From an uncultured Eubacteriales bacterium (lineage in GTDB: Bacteria > Bacillota > Clostridia > Christensenellales > CAG-138), in assembly GCA_902787375.1 (NCBI GenBank), contig CADAGD010000004.1:28018-92017 (forward strand): a DNA stretch of 64,000 nt, written 5' to 3'. The notes beneath the pieces were generated by a model, which saw only the letters and a list, made by a program, of their open reading frames with translations, was not told the origin of the DNA and did no database searches. The position numbers were made by a program, and so were the translations under genes. Each line of letters begins with the position of its first letter. The stretch's first letter is position 1. Shown here one piece after another: positions 7,117-49,400 of the stretch.

Positions 7117-8046
7117 TTATTGATGCTTTGTGCGCAGCGCGTTTTCAATCTGTTTTGAAGAAAACGTGCAAAGCTCCCTTCCGCCTGTCTTTACATTGCG
7201 CCGAACCTTATTGACGGCGGGATAGCCCCAACCGTTTAGAAATCCGCGTGGGCCGGAAATGCTCCCTGCGGGCGGCTCATTCGCAATTATATAGGGCAGG
7301 GAGAGCGCGGACTTTTCGGGGGAGTTGAAAAGCCCTCCGAGAACTGTCGCCAGATGCCCAACGACCTTTCCGAAAGCCTCGGTGCCGAGCGGAGTGATGG
7401 CAATGCCCGGATGACTCATCAGTATGTGGACATGGCTGTCCTTATTCCGCTGTGATATGTAATAGGTATACTTAGCAAGACAAAGCTTGGAGCGGGCGTA
7501 TACCGCAAAGCTGTTGTAGTGCTTGCGATAAAAGAAATCGCTGTAATCGACAGTTCCTATTTTGTGGATTATCGAGATGGTATTGATATAAATGACCTCA
7601 TGCGCCAAGCCTTCAAGATAGGGCAGCACCATTTCGGTAAGATAGTACGAGCCCAGATAGTTGGTTCCCATAACCAGCTCAAAGCCGTCCTTGGTAGTTT
7701 GTCCGGGCTTGCGGAATATTCCGGCGTTGTTCAGGAATATGTCCACATCGACATTGCCGCTTTTTAAATCCTCGACAAACGCGCCGATGGATGAGGTGTC
7801 GGAAATGTCAAGCGACATTATGTCAATGAGGGCTTTTGGATAATCGCGCAGCAGATTTGCTTTTGCGGCTTGGGCTTTTTTTATATTTCTGCAAGCCATT
7901 ATGACGTTTGCGCCAAGGTATGCCATAAGCTCCGATGCTTTGAAGCCTATGCCGCTGTTCGCGCCTGTTATAAGCACGGTTTTGCCGTTAAAGCTTACGT
8001 TACAGTTTTTTTCAAGCCATTTCTTTGTCTTCTTGTTGAGTGACAT
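7117..8046 (-). CDS. short-chain dehydrogenase/reductase (SDR) family oxidoreductase
   Basis: TGANSGIG cofactor motif, NNAG, and Y-x3-K (YARSK). Confidence 0.9.
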   Translation of the reverse strand: MSLNKKTKKWLEKNCNVSFNGKTVLITGANSGIGFKASELMAYLGANVIMACRNIKKAQAAKANLLRDYPKALIDIMSLDISDTSSIGAFVEDLKSGNVDVDIFLNNAGIFRKPGQTTKDGFELVMGTNYLGSYYLTEMVLPYLEGLAHEVIYINTISIIHKIGTVDYSDFFYRKHYNSFAVYARSKLCLAKYTYYISQRNKDSHVHILMSHPGIAITPLGTEAFGKVVGHLATVLGGLFNSPEKSALSLPYIIANEPPAGSISGPRGFLNGWGYPAVNKVRRNVKTGGRELCTFSSKQIENALRTKHQ

Positions 8047-8074
8047 TTTTCCTCAGATTGCCTCCGCCTCAATG

Positions 8075-8107
8075 AAACCGACCGCCGGAAATGCCGACGG
8101 TCGGTTT
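8075..8107 (-). terminator. stem-loop downstream of groEL
   Basis: AAACCGACCG ... CGGTCGGTTT inverted repeat directly after the groEL stop. The T-run is weak. Confidence 0.5.
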
Positions 8108-8128
8108 AATATCATGGATTATTGCTTA

Positions 8129-9778
<1,650 letters not shown>

Positions 9779-10066
9779 TTAGTCCTCGACAACAGCGAGA
9801 ATATCATTCTGACGGACGATGATGTACTCAACGCCATCCACCTTAACTTCGGTTCCTGCGTACTTGGAATAGAATACCCTGTCGCCGGGAGCTACGTTCA
9901 TTGTAACTTCCTTGCCATCGACCACACCGCCGGGACCTACGGCGATGACCTCAGCCATCTGGGGCTTTTCCTTGGCGTTGCCGGCGAGTATGAATCCGCT
10001 TGCGGTCGTCTCCTCGGCTTCCAGAGATTTGATAACCACTCTGTCAGAAAGAGGTCTGAGTTTCAT
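9779..10066 (-). CDS. groS: co-chaperonin GroES
   Basis: 95 aa, [13 protein letters not shown]...; located immediately upstream of groEL. Confidence 0.98.
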
Positions 10067-10169
10067 TGTGCTTTTCCTCCTATAGTAAATTGTTTTTAAA
10101 CATAATTAATTCGGAAGGAGTCGGAATAAGCGCACCGACTGATGCACAGCCGTATCCGAAACCGTCCTG

Positions 10170-10196
10170 TTAGCACTCATTTTACTTGAGTGCTAA
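10170..10196. promoter_or_regulatory. CIRCE operator (HrcA binding site)
   Basis: Perfect TTAGCACTC-N9-GAGTGCTAA in the groES 5' leader. Confidence 0.92.
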
Positions 10197-10204
10197 CGAA
10201 GCTA

Positions 10205-10233
10205 ATTATATGCGCAAATATCCTTCCTGTCAA
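10205..10233 (-). promoter_or_regulatory. sigma-A type promoter of groESL
   Basis: On the minus strand, TTGACA-N17-TATAAT just upstream of CIRCE. Confidence 0.65.
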
Positions 10234-10284
10234 CACTTGTGAGCGCAAAGTGAATAATATATTTAAGTTTTTTGTTTAACCCCT

Positions 10285-10312
10285 TGCAAAAGTTGGAAAA
10301 ATGTTGTATAGT
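10285..10312 (+). promoter_or_regulatory. candidate promoter for the leader peptide / ABC operon
   Basis: TTGCAA-N16-TATAGT. Confidence 0.45.
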
Positions 10313-10345
10313 CAATAAGAAAAAAAACGAAAGGAGGTTGCGCAG

Positions 10346-10426
10346 ATGCGTTATTTGAATAGTGTAAAGGTTATGAATATCATTCCCGAAGTAGCGGTGC
10401 GCAGCCTGACCGTCGTAACGGATTAA
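10346..10426 (+). CDS. candidate 26-codon leader peptide (MRYLNSVKVMNIIPEVAVRSLTVVTD)
   Basis: AGGAGG 8 nt upstream of the ATG. It sits between a promoter and an intrinsic terminator, ahead of the ABC genes. Not in the ORF track because it is under 60 aa. Confidence 0.45.
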   Translation: MRYLNSVKVMNIIPEVAVRSLTVVTD

Positions 10427-10449
10427 TACTGTTAGGTTATGCGTATTGG

Positions 10450-10486
10450 TACCGCGGGTCTGCATCACCTGCGGTATTTTTATTTT
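10450..10486 (+). terminator. intrinsic terminator / attenuator in the ABC operon leader
   Basis: TACCGCGGGT...ACCTGCGGTA stem followed by TTTTTATTTT, 20 nt before the RBS of the ABC gene. Confidence 0.6.
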
Positions 10487-10507
10487 GGACAATATAAAGG
10501 AGGTTTT

Positions 10508-12391
10508 ATGCAAAGCGGAGATAAAAACAAAAACACGGGAAAAAAGCCGAGAACGCCCATCAATTATAAGCTTGTAAGCAGTATAATGAGGGGAACGCGG
10601 AGGTATTTTGTAATATCCGTGCTGGGACTTATTGCGGCGATAATCACGTCGTACATGATACCCATAGTAACGAGCTTCACAATAGACTATGTGCTGCTGC
10701 CATATGCCGAGGAGGGCTATGAGGCGGGGCGCACAATGGTTCCCGAAGCGGTGATGCAATGGATAGAGAGCATAGGCGGACGAGGCTTTTTGCTTGAGCA
10801 TCTCTACATAATGGGAATACTGCTCGTCATAATAACGGCGGTGAACGCGATAAGCACATTCCTGCGCAGAAGCTATGCGGCATATGCCGGAGAGGGAATA
10901 GCCAAGAACATCCGTGATGATCTTTACACGCATCTTGCGAATGTTCCGTATGATTATTTCAAGCATGTTTCGACGGGCGATATAGTACAAAGATGCACCT
11001 CGGATGTTGACGGTGTAAGGAGGTTCATTCAGAACCAGCTTCTTGAGATACTGAGAACCGTGCTGATGGTGATAACGGCGGCAGTCATAATGCTGAGGAT
11101 AGATTCGCTTCTGACGCTCTGGTCGGTCATGCTGATGCCGTTCCTCGCGCTGTCATCCTTCATCTATTTCAGAAAGGTCAAGAGCAGCTTTACCGAAGCC
11201 GATGAGGCTGAGGGTGCGCTTTCCGCCGCCATTCAGGAGAATCTGACGGGCGTAAGGGTCGTCAGGGCATTCGGACAGCAGAAGCGTGAGCTTGATAATT
11301 TCACCGAAAAGAACTCCGATCACAGGAAGAAGAATCTGCGCCTGACATACCTCATGGCATATTACTGGTCGGCTTCGGACGCATTCGGATACCTGCAAAT
11401 AATGATCTCCCTCTGCGTCGGCGCGTACTTTGTGATAACGGGGCGCATATCCGTCGGAGAGATGCTGGTATTCACCTCATATACGGCAATGCTGACATGG
11501 CCAGTGCGCCAGCTCGGAAGGATACTTGCCGATCTGGGCAAAGCATCGGTATCCCTCGGCAGGATAGATGAGATAATGTCGGCTCCGCTTGAGGAGGAGC
11601 CGGGCAAGGCGCTTAGTCCCACAATAACGGGAGAGGTGGAGTTCAGGCATGTCGGTTTCAAATACGCGGACAGCACGGTTCCGGTGCTTTCCGATATAAG
11701 CTTTACGGCGAAGAAGGGAGAGACAATCGCCATACTCGGCTCTACGGGAAGCGGCAAATCGACGCTTGTTCAGCTCATGCAAAGGCTCTACTGCGCGACC
11801 GAGGGTGAGATACTGATAGACGGCGTGAACATAAACGACATTGAGCGGCATCATCTGCGCAAAGGGATAAGCATAGTGCTTCAGGAGCCGTTCCTTTATT
11901 CAAGAACGATTATGGAAAATATCCGAATAGTCGATCCTGATATGCCGGAGGAGGCGGTCTATGAGGCGGCGCGTGTTGCCGCCATACACGACGTCGTCAA
12001 GGAGTTTGAGAAGGGCTATGATACGGTCGTGGGCGAGCGCGGTGTTACGCTTTCGGGCGGACAAAAACAGCGCGTGGCAATCGCGCGTATGCTGACACAG
12101 AACGCGCCCATAATCATACTCGACGATTCGATGTCGGCGGTCGATACCGAAACGGACGCGGCGATCCGCGAAGCATTGTCAGGAAGCAGGGGCAGCCGTA
12201 CAACATTCATAATATCTCACCGCATAACAACTCTGCGTGAGGCGGATAAGATACTCGTGCTTGAACACGGACGCCTTGTTCAGCAGGGGACGCATGATGA
12301 GCTTATGAGGACGGACGGACTTTACAGAAGAATAGCGGATATTCAGAACATGCTCGGCGATGAGCTTATATCGGAAGGAGGTGAAGCCTGA
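10508..12391 (+). CDS. ABC exporter, fused permease/ATPase, heterodimer subunit 1
   Basis: AAAGGAGG RBS plus ATG at 10508 (trimmed from the track start). Six-TM domain, Walker A GSTGSGKST, signature LSGGQKQR, Walker B IIILDD. Confidence 0.9.
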   Translation: MQSGDKNKNTGKKPRTPINYKLVSSIMRGTRRYFVISVLGLIAAIITSYMIPIVTSFTIDYVLLPYAEEGYEAGRTMVPEAVMQWIESIGGRGFLLEHLYIMGILLVIITAVNAISTFLRRSYAAYAGEGIAKNIRDDLYTHLANVPYDYFKHVSTGDIVQRCTSDVDGVRRFIQNQLLEILRTVLMVITAAVIMLRIDSLLTLWSVMLMPFLALSSFIYFRKVKSSFTEADEAEGALSAAIQENLTGVRVVRAFGQQKRELDNFTEKNSDHRKKNLRLTYLMAYYWSASDAFGYLQIMISLCVGAYFVITGRISVGEMLVFTSYTAMLTWPVRQLGRILADLGKASVSLGRIDEIMSAPLEEEPGKALSPTITGEVEFRHVGFKYADSTVPVLSDISFTAKKGETIAILGSTGSGKSTLVQLMQRLYCATEGEILIDGVNINDIERHHLRKGISIVLQEPFLYSRTIMENIRIVDPDMPEEAVYEAARVAAIHDVVKEFEKGYDTVVGERGVTLSGGQKQRVAIARMLTQNAPIIILDDSMSAVDTETDAAIREALSGSRGSRTTFIISHRITTLREADKILVLEHGRLVQQGTHDELMRTDGLYRRIADIQNMLGDELISEGGEA

Positions 12392-15297: not shown

Positions 15298-16230
15298 GTG
15301 AAAAAGAGGTTTTTTGCGATAACGGCGATAATTATATGTGTGCTTATGCTGACGATCAGCATGAGTGCGCTTGCCGATTTCGGCGGATTCAGCGGTGATT
15401 CGGACTATGGCGGGGACTGGGGCGGAAGCTCGGATTCCGATTGGGGTTCAAGCGGAAGCAGCTCCGGCGGTGGATTCTGGATATTTGACGGCGGCTCGGA
15501 CAGCGATTACAGGGATGGGAACCTGTCGTCCGGGGATGTTATAATAGTTATAATAATCGTTGCGGTTATACTTTTCTATATCTGGAGAAAGAACAAGGGT
15601 CAGCAGCAACAGCAGACGCCGGTCGTTACGACCGTACAGCGCACCGATGATGAGCTTCTGAGCTCCATTGACGAATACACGAAGATAGACGAGGGCTTCA
15701 ATGCCGCAAGGCTTCAGACCAAGCTCGGCAATCTCTATGTGCAGATGCAGAACTGCTGGACGGCAAGGGATATAACCTCCCTGCGTCCTTACCTGACCGA
15801 CGAGCTTTACAGCCAGACCGAAAGACAGCTTGACAGCTACGTTAAAGGAGGGCAGACGCCCCATGTTGACAACATAGCTGTGCTGGGAGTAAATCTCCGC
15901 GGATTCTACCAAATGGAGTGCATGGATCATATCATAGTGGAGCTCAGCTCGCGTATCACCACATATACAACGGACGACGCCACGGGCGCGGTCGTTAAGG
16001 GCAGCCGTGACAGGGAAAAGTTTATGACGTATGAATGGGACCTCTGCCGCACTTCGGGAATTACGACGGCGGGAGAGGACGAGTTCAAGACGGTAAACTG
16101 CCCCAACTGCGGTGCGCCTCTTAGCATCAATAAGAGCGCGAAATGCCCCTACTGCGAATCCGTCATAACCCTCGACGAGCATGATTGGCTCCTGTTCTCG
16201 ATAAAGGGCTTGAGCCAGAGGACACAGTAA
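15298..16230 (+). CDS. membrane protein with Tim44-like domain and C-terminal zinc ribbon
   Basis: GTG start with GGAG RBS. Signal/TM segment, Gly/Ser/Asp-rich stretch, second TM, Tim44-like core (recall-based), CPNCGAP...CPYC. Confidence 0.7.
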   Translation: MKKRFFAITAIIICVLMLTISMSALADFGGFSGDSDYGGDWGGSSDSDWGSSGSSSGGGFWIFDGGSDSDYRDGNLSSGDVIIVIIIVAVILFYIWRKNKGQQQQQTPVVTTVQRTDDELLSSIDEYTKIDEGFNAARLQTKLGNLYVQMQNCWTARDITSLRPYLTDELYSQTERQLDSYVKGGQTPHVDNIAVLGVNLRGFYQMECMDHIIVELSSRITTYTTDDATGAVVKGSRDREKFMTYEWDLCRTSGITTAGEDEFKTVNCPNCGAPLSINKSAKCPYCESVITLDEHDWLLFSIKGLSQRTQ

Positions 16231-16241
16231 TACAAAAGCCA

Positions 16242-16283
16242 AAGCAGGCATGATATGGCTGAAAGCTCATACCGTGCCTGCTT
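16242..16283. terminator. stem-loop between convergent genes
   Basis: AAGCAGGCA...TGCCTGCTT 9-bp stem. Confidence 0.5.
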
Positions 16284-16295
16284 CTTTACATTTAT

Positions 16296-16604
16296 TTACT
16301 CGGCGTATTCCTGCGGACAGCCGTCGAATACCACCTTAATCGTTCCAACATCCTCAGGTGCAGGACTTGCCGCCTGCTGCTTTATAAGCTCAAAGACAAG
16401 CTTTGCCGCCGATATTCGGTCGGTCGCTTTTACGCTCTCGTCCGTCAATACCTGCTCAAGGCTGTCCAATGCCGTTTGCGCAAGCCTCCTGAGCCTTCGG
16501 TTGATGCCGACCGTTCCGGCTTTGCGATTGCCCGATGTCGGCTCATTTATGCTCGGTTGTTCTATTATATCATCTCCTTTGCTTATATTCTGTTGAGCGT
16601 GCAT
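16296..16604 (-). CDS. hypothetical protein (102 aa)
   Basis: ORF only. Its helical, basic N-half vaguely resembles small phage DNA-binding proteins; this is not supported further. Confidence 0.45.
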   Translation of the reverse strand: MHAQQNISKGDDIIEQPSINEPTSGNRKAGTVGINRRLRRLAQTALDSLEQVLTDESVKATDRISAAKLVFELIKQQAASPAPEDVGTIKVVFDGCPQEYAE

Positions 16605-16768
16605 GGGTTTTTTACCCTCCCATAACTATATTATAACACATTTATTCCGATAAATCAAATTGCGATTTTACACTGATTTTGCGGAATGAGCTTGACATGT
16701 TATATGATATTTGATATAGTTTGTTTGTGGCAGTCATATACTTTTTACAATACTAAGGAGGTATTACT

Positions 16769-17350
16769 ATGAGAATGGTTCGTGTCATTAAAAGCGGCAC
16801 GCTTACCGCGGCTTTTCTTGCCGTGCTGCTCACCGTGTTTGCCTGCACGGGAGTGGGCTTCAGGCTTGTTTCGTCATATGAGGAAATCCAACGCAGATTC
16901 AGTATCGACGCGAAGCCCGGAGTGGTCTATCCCGATCTGACGCCGCTTAATTTTGAAAAGTCAAGCGTCGAGTATATGTTTTGGCCGGTTTCGCAGACCG
17001 ATAACAATTCCTCGGCTAAAGAATATACTATAAGCGGCAGCAGCATCCTCGGCGGGAAAAAAGTCATATGCACATTCAGTTGCAGCAAGAACTTGCTCGA
17101 TTGCGCGAATATACATGACCCCATAATCTATAACGGCGTTGAGGTAGGGGAGTTTATTGAAGAATTTAACGGTCACTATAGTGATGGCTATGGCGTATAT
17201 ATAAACGATTGCGAGTATGAGGTATCTACATTGCTGGAGAAGGACAAGAGGCTTTCGGAAAGTGAGGTCGAGAAGATTCGTTCCGAGATTCGTGATGTTT
17301 TGTACTCGTTTATTTGCGGCATAGTCGATGAGGCACAGGGACAATCATAA
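16769..17350 (+). CDS. membrane-anchored hypothetical protein
   Basis: AAGGAGG RBS, N-terminal signal/TM segment, TTGACA-N17-TATAGT promoter at about 16697-16725, stem-loop after the stop. Confidence 0.6.
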   Translation: MRMVRVIKSGTLTAAFLAVLLTVFACTGVGFRLVSSYEEIQRRFSIDAKPGVVYPDLTPLNFEKSSVEYMFWPVSQTDNNSSAKEYTISGSSILGGKKVICTFSCSKNLLDCANIHDPIIYNGVEVGEFIEEFNGHYSDGYGVYINDCEYEVSTLLEKDKRLSESEVEKIRSEIRDVLYSFICGIVDEAQGQS

Positions 17351-17533
17351 AGCAAATCTTTCGATAATCAAACAATCGAATTGCAGAGGCGAAAGGCTTG
17401 TTCACAGCGTATAGCTGAGGACAAGCCCTTTTATTATCATATCCATCTATTATTGTCAGTCAACACAAAAACACGTTAAGGCACATTTTTAGCACTTTAT
17501 GCCCATTAAAAACTAATTTACGACAAAGAAAAA

Positions 17534-17549
17534 CAGAACTAACGTTCTC
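17534..17549. promoter_or_regulatory. LexA (SOS/Cheo) box 1
   Basis: AGAACTAACGTTCT is a perfect GAAC-N4-GTTC palindrome abutting the -35 element. Confidence 0.7.
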
Positions 17550-17556
17550 AAAATCG

Positions 17557-17586
17557 TTGACAACAGAACGAATGTTTTGGTATAAT
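17557..17586 (+). promoter_or_regulatory. sigma-A type promoter with an embedded second LexA-like box
   Basis: TTGACA-N18-TATAAT. The spacer contains GAACGAATGTTT (17566-17577), one mismatch from GAAC-N4-GTTC. Confidence 0.65.
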
Positions 17587-17658
17587 AAATATGCGGGATA
17601 AAAACCTGCCGAAAAAAATAAGTCAACGCTTCAAAAAAACATCAGGGAGGGCAATCAA

Positions 17659-17889
17659 ATGGAAAAAGAAAACGAACGCCTCACCCGGACGGTACTGGCG
17701 GGGAAACCCGCCGACCGTCCATGGGAGGGGTGCATAAACTCCGTGGTATACCGCGTACCGAGGGGCGTACCTGTTGAGCTGCCGGAGTTTATTGCGGAGC
17801 ATATAAGAAGGACGGAGGCTGAGCGGGAGCAGGCAGAGAGGAGGGCGGAGCAGTATTCAAAGGCGGCAAGCAGGCTCATGAGGGATTGA
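17659..17889 (+). CDS. hypothetical protein (76 aa), first gene of the SOS-box cassette
   Basis: GGGAGGG RBS. Arg/Glu-rich helical C-terminus. Confidence 0.6.
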   Translation: MEKENERLTRTVLAGKPADRPWEGCINSVVYRVPRGVPVELPEFIAEHIRRTEAEREQAERRAEQYSKAASRLMRD

Positions 17890-17934
17890 CGGGCGCGGGA
17901 GGCGTGACACGCTGAATGTATAAGGAGGATTTTA

Positions 17935-18471
17935 ATGACGCTTAATGACATTATAGTATCGGCGCTTGCCCAGCTTGACAGGGGGCATGACGCGCAGACG
18001 ATGGACACATTCAGGGCAAGGCTTACGGACTTTGCCAATGACGCGCAATCGGATATAGCGCGCGCCATAAGCTTTACAAGGACGGATACCGTTCAGCCTT
18101 CCAATGGAATTGTGGAGCTTACACAGCTTGAAAGGGATTGCATAAAGGTGACAAAGACCATGCAATTAGGTCACGAGGTCAAATTCATGCGCGGGGACAC
18201 GGGAGTTATCGCGCTTCCGTATAACTCATCCGCAGAGATAACATACATATGTGAGCCTAAGCCGCTCGTTGCGTCAACGGATGTCAGCGAGCTTCCGGCA
18301 TATACGCACGGACTTATAGTCAGCTATGTTGTCGGAAGGGAACGAATGTCCGGCGACACATCCACTCAGAGGGGAGCCAACATATACCTTTCAATGTACG
18401 AGGCTGCAAAAAACAAGCTCCGTCCGCACTATGGCGATTCGGAAAGCTACAGGATACAGAACAGGTACTGA
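17935..18471 (+). CDS. phage virion-associated protein-like (178 aa), possible head-tail/tail accessory factor
   Basis: AAGGAGG RBS. Tight spacing with neighbours. Size and position resemble small podovirus adaptor proteins (recall-based, weak). Confidence 0.6.
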   Translation: MTLNDIIVSALAQLDRGHDAQTMDTFRARLTDFANDAQSDIARAISFTRTDTVQPSNGIVELTQLERDCIKVTKTMQLGHEVKFMRGDTGVIALPYNSSAEITYICEPKPLVASTDVSELPAYTHGLIVSYVVGRERMSGDTSTQRGANIYLSMYEAAKNKLRPHYGDSESYRIQNRY

Positions 18472-18480
18472 GGAGAAAAT

Positions 18481-19908
18481 ATGGCAAGCTATACTTACAG
18501 AATCGAGGGCTTTGCCGGCATCGACCAGTCGAGGGACGAGAGCTACATATCCCCGTCATACTCGCCCGATGCGATGAACATGGATACCTCGGACGGCAAT
18601 CTGGCTGTATGCAAGGGCTTTACGAAGCTGCTGCCCGCTCCCGTGCCTGCGGAAAGCACGAGCGGAATAGACTGCGTTTGCTTCTTCAGGGACGCCTCAA
18701 GGGACATCCCGATGGCAATTTCGGGAGGCTATATTTACACATATGATGAAGAGGATGAGGAGTGGACGCAGGCATATGAATACTCCCTCGTGCTTGCCAC
18801 AAGGCATTACTCGGTGCTTATGACTAGGATTGGCACGACGGATACCATGCTGATAGCCGACGGAGCGAATCAAATACTCAAATTTGACGGAACCGACTTT
18901 TCGGCGTTCGGCTCCTCCGAGGGATGCTCCGACATAGCGGTGAGCTGCATCGCCATGTACCGAGGCAGGCTTTTTGCGGCGGGAGATTATCAGAACCCGA
19001 ACAGACTGTATTATTCCAAGCTCCCCGGAGGGGACAGAACAATAGAGGATTGGGGCTATGACGCCGACTCGCCCGCCGTCGAGGGCGGACATGTGGAGAT
19101 AGGAACCACGAGCGGCGATCCGATAACCGCGATATGCGCCATGAGCAATCAGCTTCTCATATTCAAAAAGAACTCGATTTACAGGCTCATAGGCGACAGA
19201 CCGGGCAATTTCACGATTGAGCTGATAGTTAGCGACTCCACGTTTGTCACCGATACCGCAACGGCTGTATACCGCGACGTCATCTACTATGTGACGGAGG
19301 GGGGACTGCATTGCTTCAACGGCGTTGACGCGGCTCCGATGCCGGATGCCCGCCTCATCAAGCGCATAATGGATGGCGCGGACACAAGCGATACCCGCGT
19401 CGCGGTAGTGGGGGACAGGCTCTATTTCACGATCAAGAAGGACGATTATACAAGGCTCATCGAGTATGACCTCAAGACAAGGCATTATATGCAGTACGGA
19501 GGCTTCAAGCTTTACGATATAAACAGCCTTGACGGAAAGCTGATCATCACCACCGACAGCAGGTATCTTGAAAAATGGGGCGAGGGAAACAGCTTCGACG
19601 GTCAGCCCATAGAGGCTTACTGGACTACACCGCTGACCGACCTCGGAGAAAAATCCGCAGTCAAATCCATGCGCGAGCTGTTCCTGCGAGGCAGAGCCGA
19701 TTCGCCGCTCATAGTCGATATGAATGTGGGCGGCAAGCGCGATACATACCGCGTACTGCTTCCCGAAACCCTTGACGACGTGCTTGAGGTTCCGCTTAAA
19801 AATGAGGGGCGAACCATGAATCTCAAAATCAGCAATGAGAACGGCGGCGGGTTCAGCATTGTCGGAGGAATGGAGATAGAGATGAACGTCAGGCGCAGAA
19901 CCCGCTGA
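18481..19908 (+). CDS. phage structural protein-like (475 aa), beta-propeller-like repeats
   Basis: Follows the 178-aa ORF after a 9-nt gap. Recurrent G-x-L-Y/F strand motifs (GRLFAAGD, IYRLIGD, GGLHCFNG, DRLYFTI). Size resembles the P22 gp10-type stabilisation protein (recall-based). Confidence 0.65.
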   Translation: MASYTYRIEGFAGIDQSRDESYISPSYSPDAMNMDTSDGNLAVCKGFTKLLPAPVPAESTSGIDCVCFFRDASRDIPMAISGGYIYTYDEEDEEWTQAYEYSLVLATRHYSVLMTRIGTTDTMLIADGANQILKFDGTDFSAFGSSEGCSDIAVSCIAMYRGRLFAAGDYQNPNRLYYSKLPGGDRTIEDWGYDADSPAVEGGHVEIGTTSGDPITAICAMSNQLLIFKKNSIYRLIGDRPGNFTIELIVSDSTFVTDTATAVYRDVIYYVTEGGLHCFNGVDAAPMPDARLIKRIMDGADTSDTRVAVVGDRLYFTIKKDDYTRLIEYDLKTRHYMQYGGFKLYDINSLDGKLIITTDSRYLEKWGEGNSFDGQPIEAYWTTPLTDLGEKSAVKSMRELFLRGRADSPLIVDMNVGGKRDTYRVLLPETLDDVLEVPLKNEGRTMNLKISNENGGGFSIVGGMEIEMNVRRRTR

Positions 19909-20326
19909 GCCGCATTTTGGAGAAGCGATTAACTCAGTTAAGCTCCAAAGTGATAAATCTGCGACCAAAGGGAGCCACGTGGGCGTGGAGTGTTAAGGAA
20001 TCGCAACGGTGTTGCGATTTTAACGGAACGCCGAAGCTGCTGTGCAGAGAGGGAAGCGTACGCGCCGCACCGAACTTGGTTAAGCAATTACTCAATGCAA
20101 CCCTCAGGGCGAACCCAGTCGCCCGTTATCAACCTTTTTGACCTTTCACCGGATGGTCAAAATCGTGAAACGACCGGTTGATAACCTCCTGCGAGAAATA
20201 TCCGTATAATTATTGAAGAAAGGCATAGCAGAACAGTTGAGATTGATTGAAATCTATACGCTTCTAATTTGGCAGTTGCCAAAAGCGTTAATTGATCATT
20301 GTATACTTTTGAGGAGGTATTGAGCT
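19909..20326 (+). ncRNA. candidate structured non-coding region (class unknown)
   Basis: 418 nt with no convincing ORF and at least five perfect hairpins (see findings). Strand assignment is tentative. Confidence 0.3.
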
Positions 20327-20536
20327 TTGGAAATGCGTTCGCTTTATAATGTCAGTCTTCCCACCGAGAGGGACGACAATGACGACAGGAAGACCCATGA
20401 CGATTGGGTTAAAAAGAACGAAAGCTGTTTGAATATGAATTTCGGTCTTATATCCGATAAGCTCTATGAACTGGAGCTGAGAATGGCTGTGCTTGAAGCC
20501 GCCGTTGAAAATATAGGCTCAAGCGGTTCAAGCTGA
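20327..20536 (+). CDS. hypothetical small protein (69 aa), predicted coiled-coil C-half
   Basis: GAGGAGG RBS 9 nt upstream of a TTG start. Terminator follows. Confidence 0.5.
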   Translation: MEMRSLYNVSLPTERDDNDDRKTHDDWVKKNESCLNMNFGLISDKLYELELRMAVLEAAVENIGSSGSS

Positions 20537-20560
20537 TAACAGGAATATTTGATGCAAAAT

Positions 20561-20610
20561 CGGGACGTCGTGTGGAGCCCTTTAAGCTCATATGCGGCGT
20601 CCCGTTTGTT
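20561..20610 (+). terminator. intrinsic terminator
   Basis: CGGGACGTCG...CGGCGTCCCG stem followed by TTTGTT. Confidence 0.55.
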
Positions 20611-20679
20611 ATGTTTGTTGATTAAATGTCATATAGCATACTGCGACCAAAAAAGACTAAATAAAGTTTGTGATAACTA

Positions 20680-20708
20680 TTGAAAAGAATGGTAAAAAGC
20701 AGTATAAT
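20680..20708 (+). promoter_or_regulatory. orphan near-consensus sigma-A promoter
   Basis: TTGAAA-N17-TATAAT. No SD-preceded ORF in the following 370 nt. Confidence 0.55.
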
Positions 20709-20793
20709 AATAAATGAAAGCTGAACTCTGCCGTATCATTTAAATGATATGGTCAAACCTCTGACAAACCCCAAATGCGCCGGAAATACCTGC

Positions 20794-20942
20794 CTTCCCC
20801 TCACAGGGGAAGGGGGACCGCCGCCTCAGCGGTGGTGGATGAGGTGGCAAAAAACTCAATAAGCACTTAGTTTTTTTGATAACGCCATTGTTTCCACCTC
20901 ATCAGTCAGACTTCGTCTGACAGCTTCCCCTCAAAGGGGAAG
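20794..20942. repeat. inverted pair of about 55-nt hairpin modules
   Basis: CTTCCCCT-CAC-AGGGGAAG + GC hairpin + GATGAGGTGG, then a 46-bp spacer, then CCACCTCATC + GTCAGAC-TTC-GTCTGAC + CTTCCCCT-CAA-AGGGGAAG. Confidence 0.75.
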
Positions 20943-21077
20943 CCAAGAAAAGCAGGCTTTGTCCGTAGTCTGAGCCTGAGTTACCAAAACTCAGGCTTTG
21001 AAATACTTGATGTCTCTCATGCTGCCGTGGTATAATGCTCACAGTAAAGGACGGTTTTACAGCAAAGGAGGAACAAT

Positions 21078-22073
21078 ATGAAAAAAACAAACACGATTAT
21101 AGCATCATCAATACTTGTGGCGGCAATGGCTTTCTCGTCCTGCGTTCCCGCAAAGACGGAGGCTGACGATGTAACTGAATCCATCAATCCAACGGAAGTC
21201 ACCGCCCTTGCATCCCCCGAAACAAACAATACAGAGTCTGCCGATTTGCCTGATTCGACCGAGTGCATTGAGACTTCCGGTGAAAAAGTGCTGCTCATAG
21301 ATAACGGTACTCTTGGAGAAAGTGAGTTTGATTACAGCTATGATATTACCAAGACCATAATTGAAACTGTTGATGAAAGCAAGGTTGGAACCGAAAAGAC
21401 TATTGAGTTTATGGGCAAGCAATATAAGCTGTTATATGAAAGGACTCGCTATGGCGTTTTGCTTAGCATTAAAGTTGATGATTATAAAATAGTAGAAGCT
21501 GAAGGCGAGTATGCCGATGAAATTGGTTATATTGATTTATTGCCCGATGGTACAATTTATTCAATTATAGCAAATCCTATATTCTCGATAGATATTCAGA
21601 GCTGCAAAAGCGGAGAGGACGTTAGGGCTTTAGTTGAAGAAAGCCTGAAGGATGAAATTGATTTCAGCAAATATGAACACTACTCAATAGTCGAGCCGGA
21701 CGAAGAAGCAGCCTTTTACTTCTATTCTATAAGTTGGAATAACAGTATTGACAATATAACGCTGTGTGATTCTGCGGCAGTCATGGTAGATACTGAAGGC
21801 GGTATTAGGGGTATACGCATGAAGGATAGGGTAGATTTTGGCTATGACACACTTCCCGATGATCTGAGCCTTGACGATTATCTCCCTCAGATAGAGAGCA
21901 AGCTAAAGAAAATCTATGGTGACGCATTTGTCGATTATGAGGTCAAATCCTCATTTGTGGGAAACATCGACGGTAATCTCTGCATAATCTGCGATGTTGA
22001 TGCCGACTACAACGATAAGCAAAACGAAAAAACCTATGATCAGATCGAGCTGGCGGTATTCATAAATCAATAA
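21078..22073 (+). CDS. lipoprotein, family A copy 1
   Basis: AAAGGAGG RBS. Signal peptide and lipobox AFSS|C. Paralogous to 23067-24032 along its full length. Confidence 0.8.
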   Translation: MKKTNTIIASSILVAAMAFSSCVPAKTEADDVTESINPTEVTALASPETNNTESADLPDSTECIETSGEKVLLIDNGTLGESEFDYSYDITKTIIETVDESKVGTEKTIEFMGKQYKLLYERTRYGVLLSIKVDDYKIVEAEGEYADEIGYIDLLPDGTIYSIIANPIFSIDIQSCKSGEDVRALVEESLKDEIDFSKYEHYSIVEPDEEAAFYFYSISWNNSIDNITLCDSAAVMVDTEGGIRGIRMKDRVDFGYDTLPDDLSLDDYLPQIESKLKKIYGDAFVDYEVKSSFVGNIDGNLCIICDVDADYNDKQNEKTYDQIELAVFINQ

Positions 22074-22192
22074 AATACACGGCATTAAAGCCTGAATTAT
22101 CAGAAGTTCAGATTTTGAAATACTTGATGTTTCTATGATATAATACTTGTGGGAATCAAAAGATTTACAATAAAAAAAGATGGAGGTGCTTT

Positions 22193-23070
22193 GTGAAACG
22201 TGCAGCCGTAATTCTATTCTGCTTTATTATGCTTTCGTTATTTGGATGTACAGTCAGTCCTAAAACATCCCTTGCTGTACTTGAGGTCAATAAACTGCCG
22301 CTATCCGATTCGGATTTGAGGATCAGCGAGTTGGAGATAAACCAAAACGCGGGTTCGGATTTGATAAGCAGGTCAGCCATGGTATTTGAAACCTCGGCAG
22401 CAGACGTGGATGAAGAATACTTAGATTCATTCAAAAAAAGTATTGGCTTTGGAGAATGTACCATGGCCGATGATGACGAAGCAATGAGTATTACGGACGA
22501 TAAGGGCAATTTCCTTACGGTGTTCAAGGCTTCGGGAACAATAACCTATTACAGCACTCCGGAGGGAGGGGATACACCCGTTGATGAATCCTCTGAGCTG
22601 CTTTCTGATGAAGAATACATGAGAATCGCAAGCGACTGGCTGAGCCATACGGGACTGCTTACGGATGAATACACCGAGAAGGATGCCGTCGTTGCCGACA
22701 ACGGTTTTGTAACAAAGACAGATGATGACGGTACTTCGCAGTTGACGTTACATTGGATGGACGGATAAAGAATGTTGTAAAGATTCAGAGGGAGTATAAA
22801 CCACTTGCGGAATATCCTCTGCAAAGCATAGAGAAAGCAATTCGTAAACTTAAGGACGGAGAGGGCGTGTTCTATGTTTCCGACAATGCAGGACAAAAAG
22901 GTATTATTGAGAATGTGAAGCTGGCATATTATAACACGGATGTTATGGACGATTGCCCGTATCTGCTCCCTGTTTATATATTTGAAGGAACAAGCGAAGG
23001 CTCTCAGTTTACGGCAATGGTCTATGCGCTTGAGGAGGATTGCTATACTGTAACAGGAGGCACAACGTGA
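22193..23070 (+). pseudogene. lipoprotein gene split by a +1 frameshift (ORFs 22193-22768 and 22753-23070)
   Basis: The first ORF has a lipobox (SLFG|C). The second ORF has no SD and only a TTG start. The frames overlap at ACGTTACATTGGATGG, where one extra T would fuse them. Confidence 0.5.
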
Positions 23071-24032
23071 AAAAAACAAATTCAATTTTAGCATCATCAA
23101 TGCTTGCGGCGGCAATAGCTTTCTCGTCCTGCGCTCCGAGTACAGAAAACACACCGGCAGACACTATTGCTCCGAGTGCTTCACAGGGGATTGTGACGAC
23201 AGCTCCCGAAGAAACCGAAAAAAACGCTTCGCTGACGGACGGTCAGGTATTGCTGATAAACAACGGACAATGCGGGGAGTCTGGTATTGAATATGTCTTT
23301 GATTATGAAGATATGATTATGACGGTCGATGAGAACAAGGTGGGAACCGAGAAAACGGTTGAGTTCTTGGGCAAGCAATACGGGCTTGTTTATAATCAGA
23401 CAGTCACATATGTTACTCACAATGCAACGGTTGACGAGTATTGCTTAACCGGGGATATGAAGCTTAACCGTTACGGAAATGAAAACCATATACGTCTATT
23501 GCCCGATGATTCGGTTTTTTCAATCTCATTAGACCCGATATTGAAGATTGATATAGCGGAGAATGAAAGCGTTGAGGATATCCGGGCTGATGTTGAAAAA
23601 GCCCTGCAAAATGAGATAGATTTTGATAAGTTTGAGTTCTGCAATGTTACAGAGCCGAATGAGGAAGCGGGCTACGACTACTATACGTTGACATGGTTCA
23701 ATAAGAAAAATGATATTCCTATGTCTGATACGGTCAGGATATATATGCTGTACGATGGTGATATAACAACCATTTGGATGAATAATAAGGTTGACCTCGG
23801 TCTTAATTCGGTTCGTGGTGATTTCGACATTGAGAGTTATCTGCCGCATATAGAGAAAAAGCTGCGAGAGATTTTCAAGGAAGCCTATGTAAGCTATGAG
23901 ATCAAGTCCTCAATAATCGGAAATATCGACGGTAAACCCTGTATAGTTTGTGACATCAGCACCGTGTATAATGATGGAAATGGTGATGATTTGCACGATC
24001 TGATTGAAATGGCAATATTCATAAACCAATGA
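23067..24032 (+). CDS. lipoprotein, family A copy 2
   Basis: GTG start at 23067 (VKKTNSILASS...), lipobox AFSS|C; paralog of 21078-22073. Confidence 0.8.
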   Translation: MKKTNSILASSMLAAAIAFSSCAPSTENTPADTIAPSASQGIVTTAPEETEKNASLTDGQVLLINNGQCGESGIEYVFDYEDMIMTVDENKVGTEKTVEFLGKQYGLVYNQTVTYVTHNATVDEYCLTGDMKLNRYGNENHIRLLPDDSVFSISLDPILKIDIAENESVEDIRADVEKALQNEIDFDKFEFCNVTEPNEEAGYDYYTLTWFNKKNDIPMSDTVRIYMLYDGDITTIWMNNKVDLGLNSVRGDFDIESYLPHIEKKLREIFKEAYVSYEIKSSIIGNIDGKPCIVCDISTVYNDGNGDDLHDLIEMAIFINQ

Positions 24033-38032: not shown

Positions 38033-39070
38033 TCAATCTTCGTCGGAAATGTCGCGTGCGCTGTCGGTAAGCTCAACGACGCATTCGGCAGTACCCATTA
38101 TGGCACGGAGCTTGGATTCTATCTCGGCAGCGACCTCAGGATTATCGCGCAGGAACTGCTTGGCGTTCTCGCGTCCCTGACCTATGCGCATATCGCCGTA
38201 TGAGAACCATGCGCCCGTCTTGGAAATTATCTTGTTGGTAACGCCCATATCGAGCAGCGAACCCTCCTTTGAGAAGCCCTCGCCATACATGAGGTCTACC
38301 TCGGCAACGCGGAAGGGAGGAGCGACCTTGTTCTTGACTACCTTTATGCGGACGCGGTTGCCGACCGCTTCGCCGCCCTGCTTGAGAACATCCACTTTGC
38401 GAACATCCAGCCTTATTGTGGCGAAGAATTTGAGAGCGCGTCCGCCCGTAGTGGTTTCGGGATTGCCGAACATGACTCCGACCTTCTCACGAAGCTGGTT
38501 GATGAATATTACGCAGCAGTTGGATTTGCCCACTATTCCGGCAAGCTTGCGCAAAGCCTGGCTCATAAGCCTTGCCTGAAGACCCACATGGGAATCGCCC
38601 ATATCGCCCTCAAGCTCCGCCTTGGGAACAAGGGCTGCAACCGAGTCGATGACTATTATATCGACCGCGCCGCTTCGGACGAGGGTATCGGCAATATCGA
38701 GTGCCTGTTCGCCGTTGTCGGGCTGGGATACGAAAAGGGCGTTGAGGTCAACGCCGAGCTTGGCGGCGTAAACGGGATCGAGGGCGTGTTCGGCGTCGAT
38801 GAAAACAGCCATGCCGCCGAGCTTCTGTGCCTCGGCTATCATGTGCAGGGCAAGCGTCGTCTTGCCGGAGGATTCGGGGCCGTAAACCTCTATTATCCTG
38901 CCTCTCGGAATGCCTCCGACACCGAGAGCGTTGTCCAGCTCGATACATCCCGTGGGTATGACCGAAACCTGTATCTTCTGCGCGGCGTCGCCCATGAGCA
39001 TTATCGCGCCCTTACCGAACTCCTTCTCTATCTGTGACAGAGCGAGATCCAATGCTTTTTCCTTATCCAT
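38033..39070 (-). CDS. recA: recombinase RecA
   Basis: [12 protein letters not shown] Walker [10 protein letters not shown], full-length 345 aa. Confidence 0.99.
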
Positions 39071-49290: not shown

Positions 49291-49382
49291 CGATTAACTA
49301 ACATCGTTTCTTAACACTACACGCCCACACGGCTCTCTTTGGTCGCAAATTCAACACCCTCATTGCGTTGCTGAGTTAATCG
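49291..49382. repeat. 92-bp element bounded by perfect 9-bp inverted repeats (CGATTAACT / AGTTAATCG)
   Basis: Located 18 nt downstream of the rsmA stop. Its core matches 19960-19998 at about 34/39 by eye (in reverse orientation). Confidence 0.65.
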
Positions 49383-49400
49383 GCGTTTACCTATATCACG

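Follow-up and report, generated by a model that had tools for sequence, protein, structure and literature searches.

What is a short phage-like gene cassette, headed by a strong promoter with two LexA-type boxes, doing among the housekeeping genes of a Christensenellales chromosome? A preliminary description of the 64-kb stretch of DNA analysed here (the window) had offered two answers, a prophage remnant that kept its promoter or a domesticated module induced by DNA damage. The domesticated module fitted best; neither a stand-alone module nor a prophage remnant did, the cassette being one unit of a dispersed head-tail-lysis set. Our preferred reading, to which we assign a probability of about 60% together with its SOS mechanism, is that the cassette represents the tail operon of a GTA-type particle system, derived from a podovirus and fixed in the chromosome, that is Christensenellales-wide and closest to FpGTA of Faecalibacterium prausnitzii. 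This reading builds on what was observed of the protein identities, the dispersal of the genes, the co-occurring loci, purifying selection and a conserved operator layout; that LexA binds, that the SOS response induces the operon and that particles package and transfer DNA are its predictions.

The open reading frames of 76, 178, 475 and 69 aa were confirmed as previously listed, all on the plus strand and each with a GGAGG-type ribosome-binding site. The first gene, g1 (17659–17889), encodes a 76-aa protein with tblastn matches in most related loci and a match to phrog_15239, a family of unknown function (E = 5e-5); in contiguous relatives it lies between the capsid and adaptor genes. The 178-aa product of g2 (17935–18471), earlier likened to P22 gp4, matched the Pfam family PF24175 (SU10_adaptor) with 31.5 bits against a gathering threshold of 27, and the same family was matched by 26 of 27 g2 relatives (best E = 8.6e-12); a single-sequence structure model of g2 reached a pLDDT of 45. 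On this profile evidence, g2 is a predicted SU10-type portal-proximal tail adaptor, a portal-to-nozzle connector in the functional slot of P22 gp4. The 475-aa product of g3 (18481–19908), for which a resemblance to P22 gp10 had been proposed, gave an AF2 model with pLDDT 90.3 and pTM 0.90, and the top 29 Foldseek matches of this model were all podovirus tail chains. The best was the Pa223 tail (9nwi_Y, E = 3.4e-23, TMq 0.77), P22 gp10 (8eap and 8u10) stood among the top, and VP1, Sf6 gp8, the SU10 nozzle and T7 gp12 were also matched. Identity of g3 to solved nozzles was just 8–14%, its match to phrog_3287 had E = 5e-22, and a search of 50,697 phage genomes revealed no close homologue (best match 22% over 70% of the protein). 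The modelled fold is that of a podovirus nozzle or tail-hub protein, a beta-propeller like P22 gp10, Pa223 and T7 gp12. In the virion, nozzles of this class form a hexamer beneath the dodecameric adaptor. The genes g2 and g3 were adjacent in all loci, and the order capsid-g1-g2-g3 recurred in contiguous relatives.

The last gene, g4 (20327–20536, plus strand), starts with TTG and encodes 69 aa with a C-terminal coiled-coil-like segment. It was assigned to the operon because a homologue (36–79% identity) follows the nozzle gene directly in most relatives. Pfam, PHROG and NCBIfam returned no family match for g4; the protein is far shorter than known needles, so it is its position only that suggests a plug or needle. 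The operon ends in a terminator-like hairpin with a U-rich tract (20561–20604, plus strand; MFE -31.3 kcal/mol, z = -4.9).

The absence of integrase, terminase, portal, capsid, fibre and lysis genes, first noted for 10 kb on either side of the cassette, extended to the whole 64 kb in Pfam and tblastn searches. The accompanying idea of a stand-alone cassette did not survive the comparison with related genomes. The full gene set of the element comprises a TerS-like protein, TerL, a P22/SU10-type portal, a scaffold, an N4-gp56-family capsid protein, adaptor, nozzle, fibres encoded by variable genes, endolysin and holin. It is contiguous in some lineages and elsewhere split into at least two loci separated by housekeeping genes (types B and C). 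Two MAGs of the window clade contain a capsid-fibre-lysin-EamA-TerL-portal locus (JAILRE010000044 and JAFZRT010000038) and carry the cassette on separate contigs (JAILRE010000055 and JAFZRT010000018, respectively). This co-occurrence, found in two related MAGs rather than in the window's own genome, indicates that in the window clade the adaptor-nozzle unit is a locus of its own, the rest of the head-tail-lysis set being placed by the contig evidence elsewhere in the chromosome. Of the two outcomes envisaged for sister genomes, a cassette conserved by itself or one embedded in full prophages, the first was thus found in the window clade; in other lineages the cassette was contiguous with head-tail genes, and no full prophage surrounded the chromosomal copies. 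No replication, integration or lysogeny genes lay beside the element in the annotated chromosomal loci, and genes for Cro/CI-type HTH and sigma-like proteins accompanied it in some lineages. A true phage relative from IMG/VR (L088) has primase/helicase, nuclease and regulator genes beside the same module. As its genes are dispersed over several loci, the element would be unable to transfer itself.

A GTA is a particle that carries random pieces of host DNA to recipient cells. The nearest counterpart, FpGTA, is likewise a podovirus-like GTA-type element of gut Clostridia (PMC12946183). Compared by names, order and a shared PDB match, it has the gene order seen here: terminase, portal, scaffold-like protein, N4-gp56-family MCP, small ORF, adaptor, nozzle (P22 gp10, PDB 8eap) and TolA-like protein; the MCP family name agrees, the 8eap match is shared, and our element has a weak TolA-like match. 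FpGTA is likewise distributed over more than one locus of the chromosome and lacks replication and integration genes (PMC12946183). The two differ in host order (Christensenellales here, Oscillospirales for FpGTA), in the site of the split, the adaptor-nozzle unit being separate here and arrangements being lineage-dependent (types A, B and C), and in LexA-type promoter operators, which are present here and unreported for FpGTA. The adaptor and nozzle of FpGTA were detected in purified particles (PMC12946183). RcGTA of Rhodobacter capsulatus and other alphaproteobacterial GTAs are also domesticated phage structural sets that are multi-locus, vertically inherited and host-regulated, and LexA is described as influencing GTA production in Rhodobacter and Dinoroseobacter (PMC5026251; PMC6363796; PMC6473078). 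RcGTA is, however, siphovirus-like and without a homologous adaptor or nozzle, and its regulation runs via CtrA, GafA, quorum sensing and, indirectly, LexA, whereas here the operators lie directly on structural-gene promoters. Among phage tail machines, the P22 gp4/gp10/gp26 order is mirrored by the adaptor, nozzle and small distal protein of the cassette; unlike their counterparts in P22, SU10 (adaptor/nozzle/needle) and T7 (gp11/gp12), the genes here are chromosomal and dispersed.

The same gene set could instead build a PBSX-like or tailocin-like defective particle with a role in killing, programmed lysis or another non-transfer function, the cassette still encoding its tail, an alternative that we regard as rather unlikely. 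Bacteriocin and colicin promoters combine tandem operators with a strong promoter, a design resembled by the tail-operon promoter described below. More broadly, tandem SOS boxes and LexA repression govern lethal or mobile functions in colicin operons, GIL01, CTXphi and coliphage 186 tum, and PBSX can be set beside them; the likeness lies in two adjacent operators over a strong promoter and in a damage-induced function that ends in lysis. Those systems control a toxin, regulator or antirepressor, whereas the operators here lie on virion structural operons. Genes for an endolysin, a holin and variable fibres also belong to the element, and a precedent exists in PBSX of Bacillus subtilis, a damage-inducible particle that packages host DNA and acts as a killer (PMC12946183), although PBSX, unlike the element, is myovirus-like and Xre-controlled. 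Against a non-GTA particle stand the conservation of TerL and portal, which implies that DNA packaging has been retained, and the GTA-like packaging of 4–6 kb DNA fragments (4.1 and 6.3 kb) reported for Christensenellaceae without identified genes; the evidence as a whole is equally compatible with transfer and with killing.

The tail operon is preceded by a sigma-A promoter (17557–17586, plus strand) consisting of TTGACA (17557–17562), an 18-nt spacer and TATAAT (17581–17586), with TG at 17578–17579 forming an extended -10 (TGgTATAAT); it was the sole 12/12 promoter match in 16200–21100. Box 1 (17535–17548), a perfect 14-bp palindrome AGAACTAACGTTCT of the LexA/Cheo operator type, lies 8 nt 5' of the -35, and box 2 (GAACGAATGTTT, 17566–17577) lies within the -35/-10 spacer, the two box centres (17541.5 and 17571.5) being 30 bp apart; neither box was assigned a strand. 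The promoter elements, the boxes and their spacing were therefore as given in the preliminary description, which had also recognized the LexA-type operator and its overlap with the promoter. Box 2 is the GTTT variant of GAAC-N4-GTT[CT] and corresponds to the clostridial operator variant GAACnnnnGTTT; the Firmicute and clostridial LexA operator is GAACnnnnGTTC or its GTTT form, the latter being typical of clostridia (PMC4234289). The layout of box 1, -35, box 2 and -10 was found again in orthologous promoters of 12 other species. Box 1 occurred at the same place with at most one mismatch in 13 of 13 aligned window-clade promoters, box 2 was retained, perfectly or with a single mismatch, in 10 of 13 (L009, L017 and L018 have lost it), TTGAC and TATAAT were near-invariant in the alignment (A4), and the 16-bp clade box consensus was TAGAACATATGTTCTA.

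Two further features were conserved in the leader. A hairpin, GCGGG-AUAAAAA-CCUGC (17593–17609, plus strand), was near-invariant in alignment A4 and showed a C-G to A-U double change of its stem in L010 and L016; its folding energy by itself was not significant. Downstream, the 10-mer GTCAACGCTT (17622–17631, unstranded) was invariant in 13 of 13 promoters, and its reverse complement AAGCGTTGAC occupied the same leader position at the capsid-operon promoter in the clade genomes L168 and L169, and also in L019 and L020. This candidate second operator, in either orientation, suggests an additional, element-specific regulator.

Boxes of this kind were no more frequent in the window than expected (one perfect GAAC-N4-GTTC observed and 0.87 expected; 23 with at most one mismatch observed and 23.6 expected), and hence are not significant by count; their significance derives from placement at the promoter and from conservation at the orthologous promoters. 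The related chromosomal loci, 1.43 Mb in total, contained 29 perfect boxes, of which 15 lay at element promoters. The -35/box/-10 design recurred at promoters of capsid operons (gene c1), and a box was also present 5' of the TerS-like/TerL operon in other lineages. Within clade genomes, the capsid-operon promoter had the same box arrangement as the tail operon, as seen at the capsid-TerL-portal locus of the two clade MAGs, and the gap between EamA and TerL contained no box. A fourth unit is w102 (16296–16604, minus strand), a gene for a conserved small protein (102 aa) of the element with no match in Pfam, PHROG or NCBIfam; in the window clade it points away from the cassette. In 11 of the 13 other window-clade loci (L007–L009, L011–L013, L015–L018 and L087), a homologue on the strand opposite to g1 lay immediately 5' of it, L010 and L014 being without upstream sequence; elsewhere, a homologue lay 3' of the portal gene (L035 and L073) or adjoined TerL (L003). 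The w102 promoter (16630–16658, minus strand; TTGATT and TATAAT separated by 17 nt, with TG) has a degraded LexA-like box GAATAAATGTGT (16636–16647) that abuts the -10 and contains three mismatches in the window copy; the site of relatives, GAACAnnTGTGC, abuts TATAAT with one mismatch. The genes w102 and g1 are separated by a foreign lipoprotein gene. Many lineages were without boxes, among them type B loci (e.g. L001, L003 and L005) and a number of type A loci, so the element is not SOS-wired throughout its range.

Taken with the operator match, this arrangement makes the tail operon probably part of an SOS-controlled system, with LexA as the presumed binder. In the undamaged cell, two LexA dimers would sit on box 1, flanking the -35, and box 2, filling the -35/-10 spacer, and would jointly occlude an otherwise near-consensus promoter. 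Upon DNA damage, active RecA would trigger LexA self-cleavage and the tail operon would fire, together with the capsid/fibre/lysis operon, which has the same box arrangement in clade genomes; the terminase operon, boxed in other lineages, could respond as well. Particles would then assemble, probably package host DNA and exit by lysis of a subpopulation. More tentatively, and at somewhat less than even odds, we propose a vertically inherited podovirus-type GTA common to Christensenellales and scattered into two to four loci, in which each transcription unit (tail, head/fibre/lysis, terminase and w102) would be wired directly to LexA through operators set within a consensus promoter, and a second leader operator would be shared. 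Such a GTA would account genetically for the GTA-like packaging reported for Christensenellaceae, and it would be the first GTA with structural operons as direct members of the SOS regulon.

The boxes might instead be the target of some other repressor, be it specific to the element or a further regulator of the host, with no SOS coupling and with the structural identities unchanged; we judge this unlikely. The recA gene of the window (38033–39070, minus strand) had no box with at most one mismatch within 630 nt upstream, lexA and uvr genes were absent from the window and from all sampled host loci, and the roughly 1.4 Mb of host DNA sampled, which included neither lexA nor another recA, yielded no boxed canonical SOS gene; it is therefore conceivable that a repressor other than LexA uses the operator. 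In the 1.43 Mb, almost all perfect boxes with an AT-rich spacer stood at promoters of the element and none at a recognisable SOS gene, and both the second conserved leader operator and the Cro/CI-type HTH and sigma-like genes beside the element in some lineages would suit a dedicated regulator. LexA is favoured by the consensus TAGAACATATGTTCTA, which equals the canonical Firmicute site, with GTTT variants typical of clostridia (PMC4234289). Moreover, in the window clade the cassette is not accompanied by any gene for a candidate repressor, and the motif is shared by independent units (g1, w102, c1 and TerS), a pattern that a global regulator of the host would produce.

The four-gene unit was present in 79 Christensenellales species representatives, and the g3 family comprised 223 protein clusters, all of about 465–483 aa. 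The cassette is under purifying selection, with a dN/dS of 0.12–0.2 for g3 and no stop codons in 14 orthologues. Housekeeping genes flanked the cassette in the window and in relatives whose contigs measured 70 kb to 1.6 Mb, a hydrogenase operon lay downstream in 9 clade species, and 8 independent assemblies of a single gut species showed an identical locus. Vertical inheritance is accordingly supported by host-lineage distribution, conserved flanks and dN/dS. A decaying prophage remnant with no present function, its promoter kept by chance, could draw on the isolation of the cassette from other phage genes in the 64-kb window, the repeat inserted between g3 and g4, the foreign lipoprotein gene and the degraded w102 box; it is already contradicted by ORFs intact in 79 species, purifying selection, the conserved promoter, operators, leader and chromosomal position, and partner loci in the same genomes (two clade MAGs), and is very improbable. 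Scarcely credible is an ordinary intact prophage whose remainder was lost in assembly or binning: short MAG fragments are common among the related contigs, but the window is contiguous over 64 kb with housekeeping genes on both sides, relatives share these flanks on the long contigs, and the chromosomal copies, in contrast to the phage relative L088, have no neighbouring genes for an integrase or for replication. An ordinary temperate prophage was likewise rejected, neither the window nor the annotated chromosomal relatives containing an integrase, repressor or replication module.

The structured non-coding stretch of about 0.4 kb reported earlier between g3 and g4 (19909–20326, plus strand) was verified, with a folding energy of -131 kcal/mol (z = -3.4). 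It matched no Rfam family and was missing at that junction in all relatives, as a lineage-specific insertion of a repeated element. Other copies were found in the window (49307–49383) and in two loci of relatives (L087, 6783–7021; L014, 4574–4646), and the hairpins of this repeat carry compensatory changes.

We compared the proteins of the four-gene cassette (g1–g4) with family and structure databases. The 178-aa product of g2 (17935–18471) matched the Pfam family SU10_adaptor at 31.5 bits, against a gathering threshold of 27, and 26 of 27 relatives matched the same family (best E = 8.6e-12). Its single-sequence structure model had a pLDDT of 45 and was unusable; the assignment as an adaptor therefore rests on Pfam. 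The 475-aa product of g3 (18481–19908) was modeled with AlphaFold from a 30-sequence alignment (pLDDT 90.3, pTM 0.90), and in a Foldseek search of the PDB the best 29 matches all came from chains of podovirus tail nozzles or hubs. Pa223 was matched with E = 3.4e-23 and a TMq of 0.77, and other matches included VP1, P22 gp10, Sf6 gp8, the SU10 nozzle, and T7 gp12. The preliminary description had likened the two proteins to P22 gp4 and gp10, an analogy that proved right in kind because of the Pfam match of g2 and the nozzle fold of g3. Alignment profiles of g2 and g3 gave no match to PDB sequences, fold comparison alone having succeeded, and a search of g3 against 50,697 deposited phage genomes returned no close homologue, the best being 22% identical over 70% of the protein. 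Family searches returned no informative family for the products of g1 (17659–17889, 76 aa) and g4 (20327–20536, 69 aa). Many nozzle homologues are much longer (550–1070 aa; e.g. 8006–11020 of the related locus L084 and 12132–14090 of L088, a true-phage relative in IMG/VR), with an insertion or N-terminal extension before the conserved C-terminal two thirds; the nozzle family therefore has modular variants.

Checking the sequence features reported earlier for the promoter and operon bore all of them out. Box 1 (AGAACTAACGTTCT, 17535–17548) is followed by a TTGACA −35 element (17557–17562), box 2 (GAACGAATGTTT, 17566–17577), and a TATAAT −10 element (17581–17586); the spacer is 18 nt, a preceding TG makes an extended −10, and the two boxes are centred 30 bp from each other. 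This was the sole 12/12 promoter match in a consensus scan of 16200–21100. Each of the four genes has a GGAGG-type ribosome-binding site (RBS), and a strong hairpin with a U-tract (20561–20604) marks the end of the transcription unit. Perfect GAAC-N4-GTTC sites number 1 in the window (0.87 expected) and sites with at most one mismatch 23 (23.6 expected). These counts are at chance level, and the functional case must therefore rest on position and conservation.

Homologues of g3 formed 223 protein clusters, nearly all of 465–483 aa, and relatives of the cassette were present in 79 GTDB species representatives, under the names Christensenellales, Christensenellaceae, Ca. Pelethousia, Clostridium sp. 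CAG:138, and rumen Clostridia MAGs. The order g1-g2-g3-g4 is a conserved unit, with a g3–g4 gap of about 10–40 nt in relatives, and it occurs in three arrangements. Type A is one operon of the scaffold-like gene c1, capsid, g1–g4, fibres, lysin, and holin, with housekeeping genes, rsmA and ileS among them, on its flanks. Type B comprises c1, capsid, fibres, a peptidoglycan (PG)-binding protein, a small protein, EamA on the opposite strand, and g1–g4, with host Rrf2/IscS/NifU genes and a terminase farther upstream. Type C, found in the window's clade (L007–L018 and L087; g3 identity 60–76%), has w102, a gene for a 102-aa protein, on the opposite strand, followed by g1–g4, and no capsid gene within 10 kb. 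TerL and a P22/SU10-type portal are further members of this gene set, with which they are contiguous in L035, L073, and L082–L085, and L082 also has a P22 gp3-like small terminase. No integrase, repressor, or replication gene adjoined any annotated chromosomal copy. In the 38.5-kb IMG/VR contig L088 the same module lies beside primase/helicase, nuclease, and regulator genes; the closest viral capsids in IMG/VR were at most 62% identical.

The first capsid profile was dominated by one abundant clade, and co-occurrence was tested with a sister-clade capsid query and contig look-ups. This query found two capsid proteins, on JAILRE010000044 and JAFZRT010000038. The former contig belongs to RUI376, which carries its w102/g1–g4 cassette on JAILRE010000055 (L016), and the latter to RGIG8038, with the cassette on JAFZRT010000018 (L012). 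Both partner loci encode c1, capsid, two fibre-like proteins, a PG-binding protein, a small protein, EamA (opposite strand), TerL, and portal, followed by a host flavodiiron gene. Genomes of the clade thus carry complete gene equipment for head, tail, packaging, and lysis, divided between two or more loci, and we infer that the window's cassette is no orphan and that its own genome has a partner locus. The earlier interpretation is supported in part: of its two alternatives, a domesticated module fits better than a prophage remnant, and the cassette does not stand alone, given the partner loci in two clade MAGs. We read the cassette as the tail operon of a domesticated particle system of podovirus type that Christensenellales carry in several loci, with LexA-type operators lying in the promoters. 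We place the probability of this structural identity and dispersal at about 0.85–0.9, and consider a true gene-transfer function an even chance.

A prophage remnant was ruled out by purifying selection, the conserved promoter, and the partner loci: g3 is intact in 14/14 clade orthologues, with a dN/dS of 0.12–0.2 in unsaturated clade pairs. An assembly artefact was ruled out by long contigs with housekeeping flanks, and a satellite or PICI by the lack of integrase, replication, or packaging-redirection genes. In line with domestication, nine clade species, the window included, have a hydrogenase operon 1.6–9 kb downstream of the cassette, and in an abundant human-gut species (L172–L179) an otherwise identical type A locus occupies the same chromosomal place in eight independent assemblies. 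Within that locus, only a collagen-like fibre gene (about 16067–17323) varies, encoding 164 to 418 aa or being missing, a sign of receptor-binding diversification.

The cassette's neighbours in the window are chromosomal; among them are genes for ABC exporters, a Tim44-like protein, lipoproteins, and a PBP, as well as recA, ftsK, and a bifurcating hydrogenase operon. With the relatives' TerS-like, TerL, portal, scaffold, capsid, fibre, and lysin proteins as tblastn queries, only w102 (16296–16604, minus strand) was found besides the cassette in the 64 kb. Between w102 and g1 lies a gene for a predicted 193-aa lipoprotein (16769–17350, plus strand) with its own promoter (16692–16720), which is confined to this genome, having no homologue in any related locus fetched; it is inserted between the w102 and g1 promoters, splitting what in relatives is a single divergent promoter region shared by the two genes. 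Three consecutive plus-strand genes at 21078–24032 (331, 191, and 330 aa, the first with a lipoprotein-type signal) separate the cassette from the hydrogenase operon; their GC content is 41–42%, compared with about 50%, they have no homologue in related loci, and the region looks like a variable insertion hotspot.

Alignment of g1 promoters from 13 clade species revealed a common layout of box 1, TTGAC, box 2, and TG-n-TATAAT, with sequences unalignable upstream of box 1. No more than one mismatch separates box 1 from the motif in 13/13 promoters and box 2 in 10/13, box 2 being lost in L009, L017, and L018. In relatives, w102 has a divergent promoter whose −10 adjoins a third box; in the window this box is degraded. 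Scanning related loci with a matrix made from the clade boxes detected the same −35/box/−10 design before the c1-capsid operon in distant lineages (L035, L069, L039, L067, L063, L020, L034, L053, L056, L061, L062, and L172). In the clade's partner loci, boxes recur at the c1 promoter, in tandem in L168 and within the spacer in L169. A perfect box also lies between the −10 and RBS of a 176-aa HTH/sigma-like gene directly upstream of TerL (L032, 11486–12016; L049, 20864–21394; L027, 21169–end). The product of this gene, with its C-terminal HTH and a weak match resembling sigma-70 region 4, is a candidate TerS-like protein or regulator of the element's late genes. Across 1.43 Mb of related host DNA there were 29 perfect boxes (21.9 expected), 15 of them at element promoters and 3 more probably so. 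Colicin promoters resemble this arrangement of tandem LexA operators on the promoter of a lysis-linked function.

The box consensus, TAGAACATATGTTCTA, agrees with the LexA operator of B. subtilis and clostridia; in clostridia, GTTT variants are normal (PMC4234289). Some findings weigh against LexA. Boxes are absent from many lineages of the element, and none precedes TerL in the partner loci of the window's clade. The window's recA (38033–39070, minus strand), which follows cinA-like and pgsA-like genes, lacks any box of one mismatch or fewer in the 630 nt before it (to 39700), an unusual state for a Firmicute should its LexA recognize the GAAC-N4-GTTC motif. The related loci fetched yielded neither lexA nor another recA, nor any other SOS gene on which the operator could be checked. 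LexA is the probable binder of the boxes, and SOS control of the cassette appears fairly likely.

The clade promoter alignment also revealed a near-invariant hairpin (17593–17609) and an invariant 10-mer (GTCAACGCTT, 17622–17631) in the g1 leader, both better conserved than the LexA-like boxes. No Rfam family matched the leader at gathering and E-value thresholds. The reverse complement of the 10-mer occupies the same leader position at the c1 promoter in L168, L169, L019, and L020 (element at about 2090–2110 in L168 and 515–535 in L169). Because it would work in either orientation, the 10-mer looks like a putative DNA operator for another regulator, suggesting a second DNA-binding regulator common to the dispersed loci.

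The gene transfer agent (GTA) of Faecalibacterium prausnitzii, FpGTA, is a podovirus-like, two-locus element whose first operon encodes terminase, portal, a Prp-like protein, an N4-gp56-family capsid, an ORF, adaptor, a nozzle matched to PDB 8eap, and a TolA-annotated protein (PMC12946183). Both its adaptor and its nozzle were present in the 40-nm particles after purification, and these particles carry host DNA fragments of about 8.5 kb (PMC12946183). From virus-like particles of human faeces, the same 2026 study reported GTA-like packaging of Christensenellaceae DNA in fragments of about 4.1 and 6.3 kb, with the genes unnamed (PMC12946183). The Christensenellales element has the same gene order, a capsid bearing the same NCBI family name (N4-gp56), a nozzle matching the same entry 8eap, and a weakly TolA-like fibre protein. 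FpGTA appears to be the closest described system, by gene order, family name, and PDB match; the view that the element would work like FpGTA is well supported, and it is probably best classed with FpGTA-like GTAs. New aspects are the host order, the lineage-specific scattering that sets adaptor and nozzle apart in their own locus, and the placing of SOS-type operators directly on every unit. RcGTA likewise has a multi-locus organization (PMC5026251).

The element family is a concrete candidate for the Christensenellales GTA-like packaging; its cis-elements are defined, and DNA damage is a trigger that can be tested. Genetic tools are almost entirely lacking for Christensenellales, heritable bacteria of the gut and rumen that are associated with health, and to our knowledge little is known of gene exchange among them. 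If true, our reading would extend podovirus-type GTAs beyond Faecalibacterium and tie gut horizontal gene flow to SOS-inducing stresses such as antibiotics. It would also present a domesticated virus that stays co-regulated despite its scattered genome, because every fragment retains the same operator-in-promoter design. The g2/g3 pair and the N4-gp56-type capsid can serve as markers for such elements, which virus-prediction catalogues have largely missed.

A structured non-coding stretch of 0.4 kb (19909–20326) separates g3 from g4 in the window and is missing from this junction in all relatives; it is an insertion into the operon, outside the ancestral design. Other copies occur at 49307–49383 of the window, 6783–7021 of L087, and 4574–4646 of L014 (all minus strand), and possibly at 1–400 of L169/L170. 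The repeated element is about 250–400 nt long and specific to the window's clade of genomes, and the relatives' copies lie either less than 2 kb from the cassette or immediately before the promoter of the capsid operon. Compensatory changes occur in the hairpins of the repeated element, the stretch folds better than shuffled sequence (z = −3.4), and Rfam gave no family at gathering and E-value thresholds. A decayed gene was ruled out, as tblastx matched only other non-coding copies and the hairpins co-vary; candidate identities are a MITE-like repeat and an RNA not yet described. A different kind of repeat lies beside the element in L028 (about 12080–12260), where units of attgccattcccatagggaattgaaac alternate with short spacers in a CRISPR-array-like pattern.
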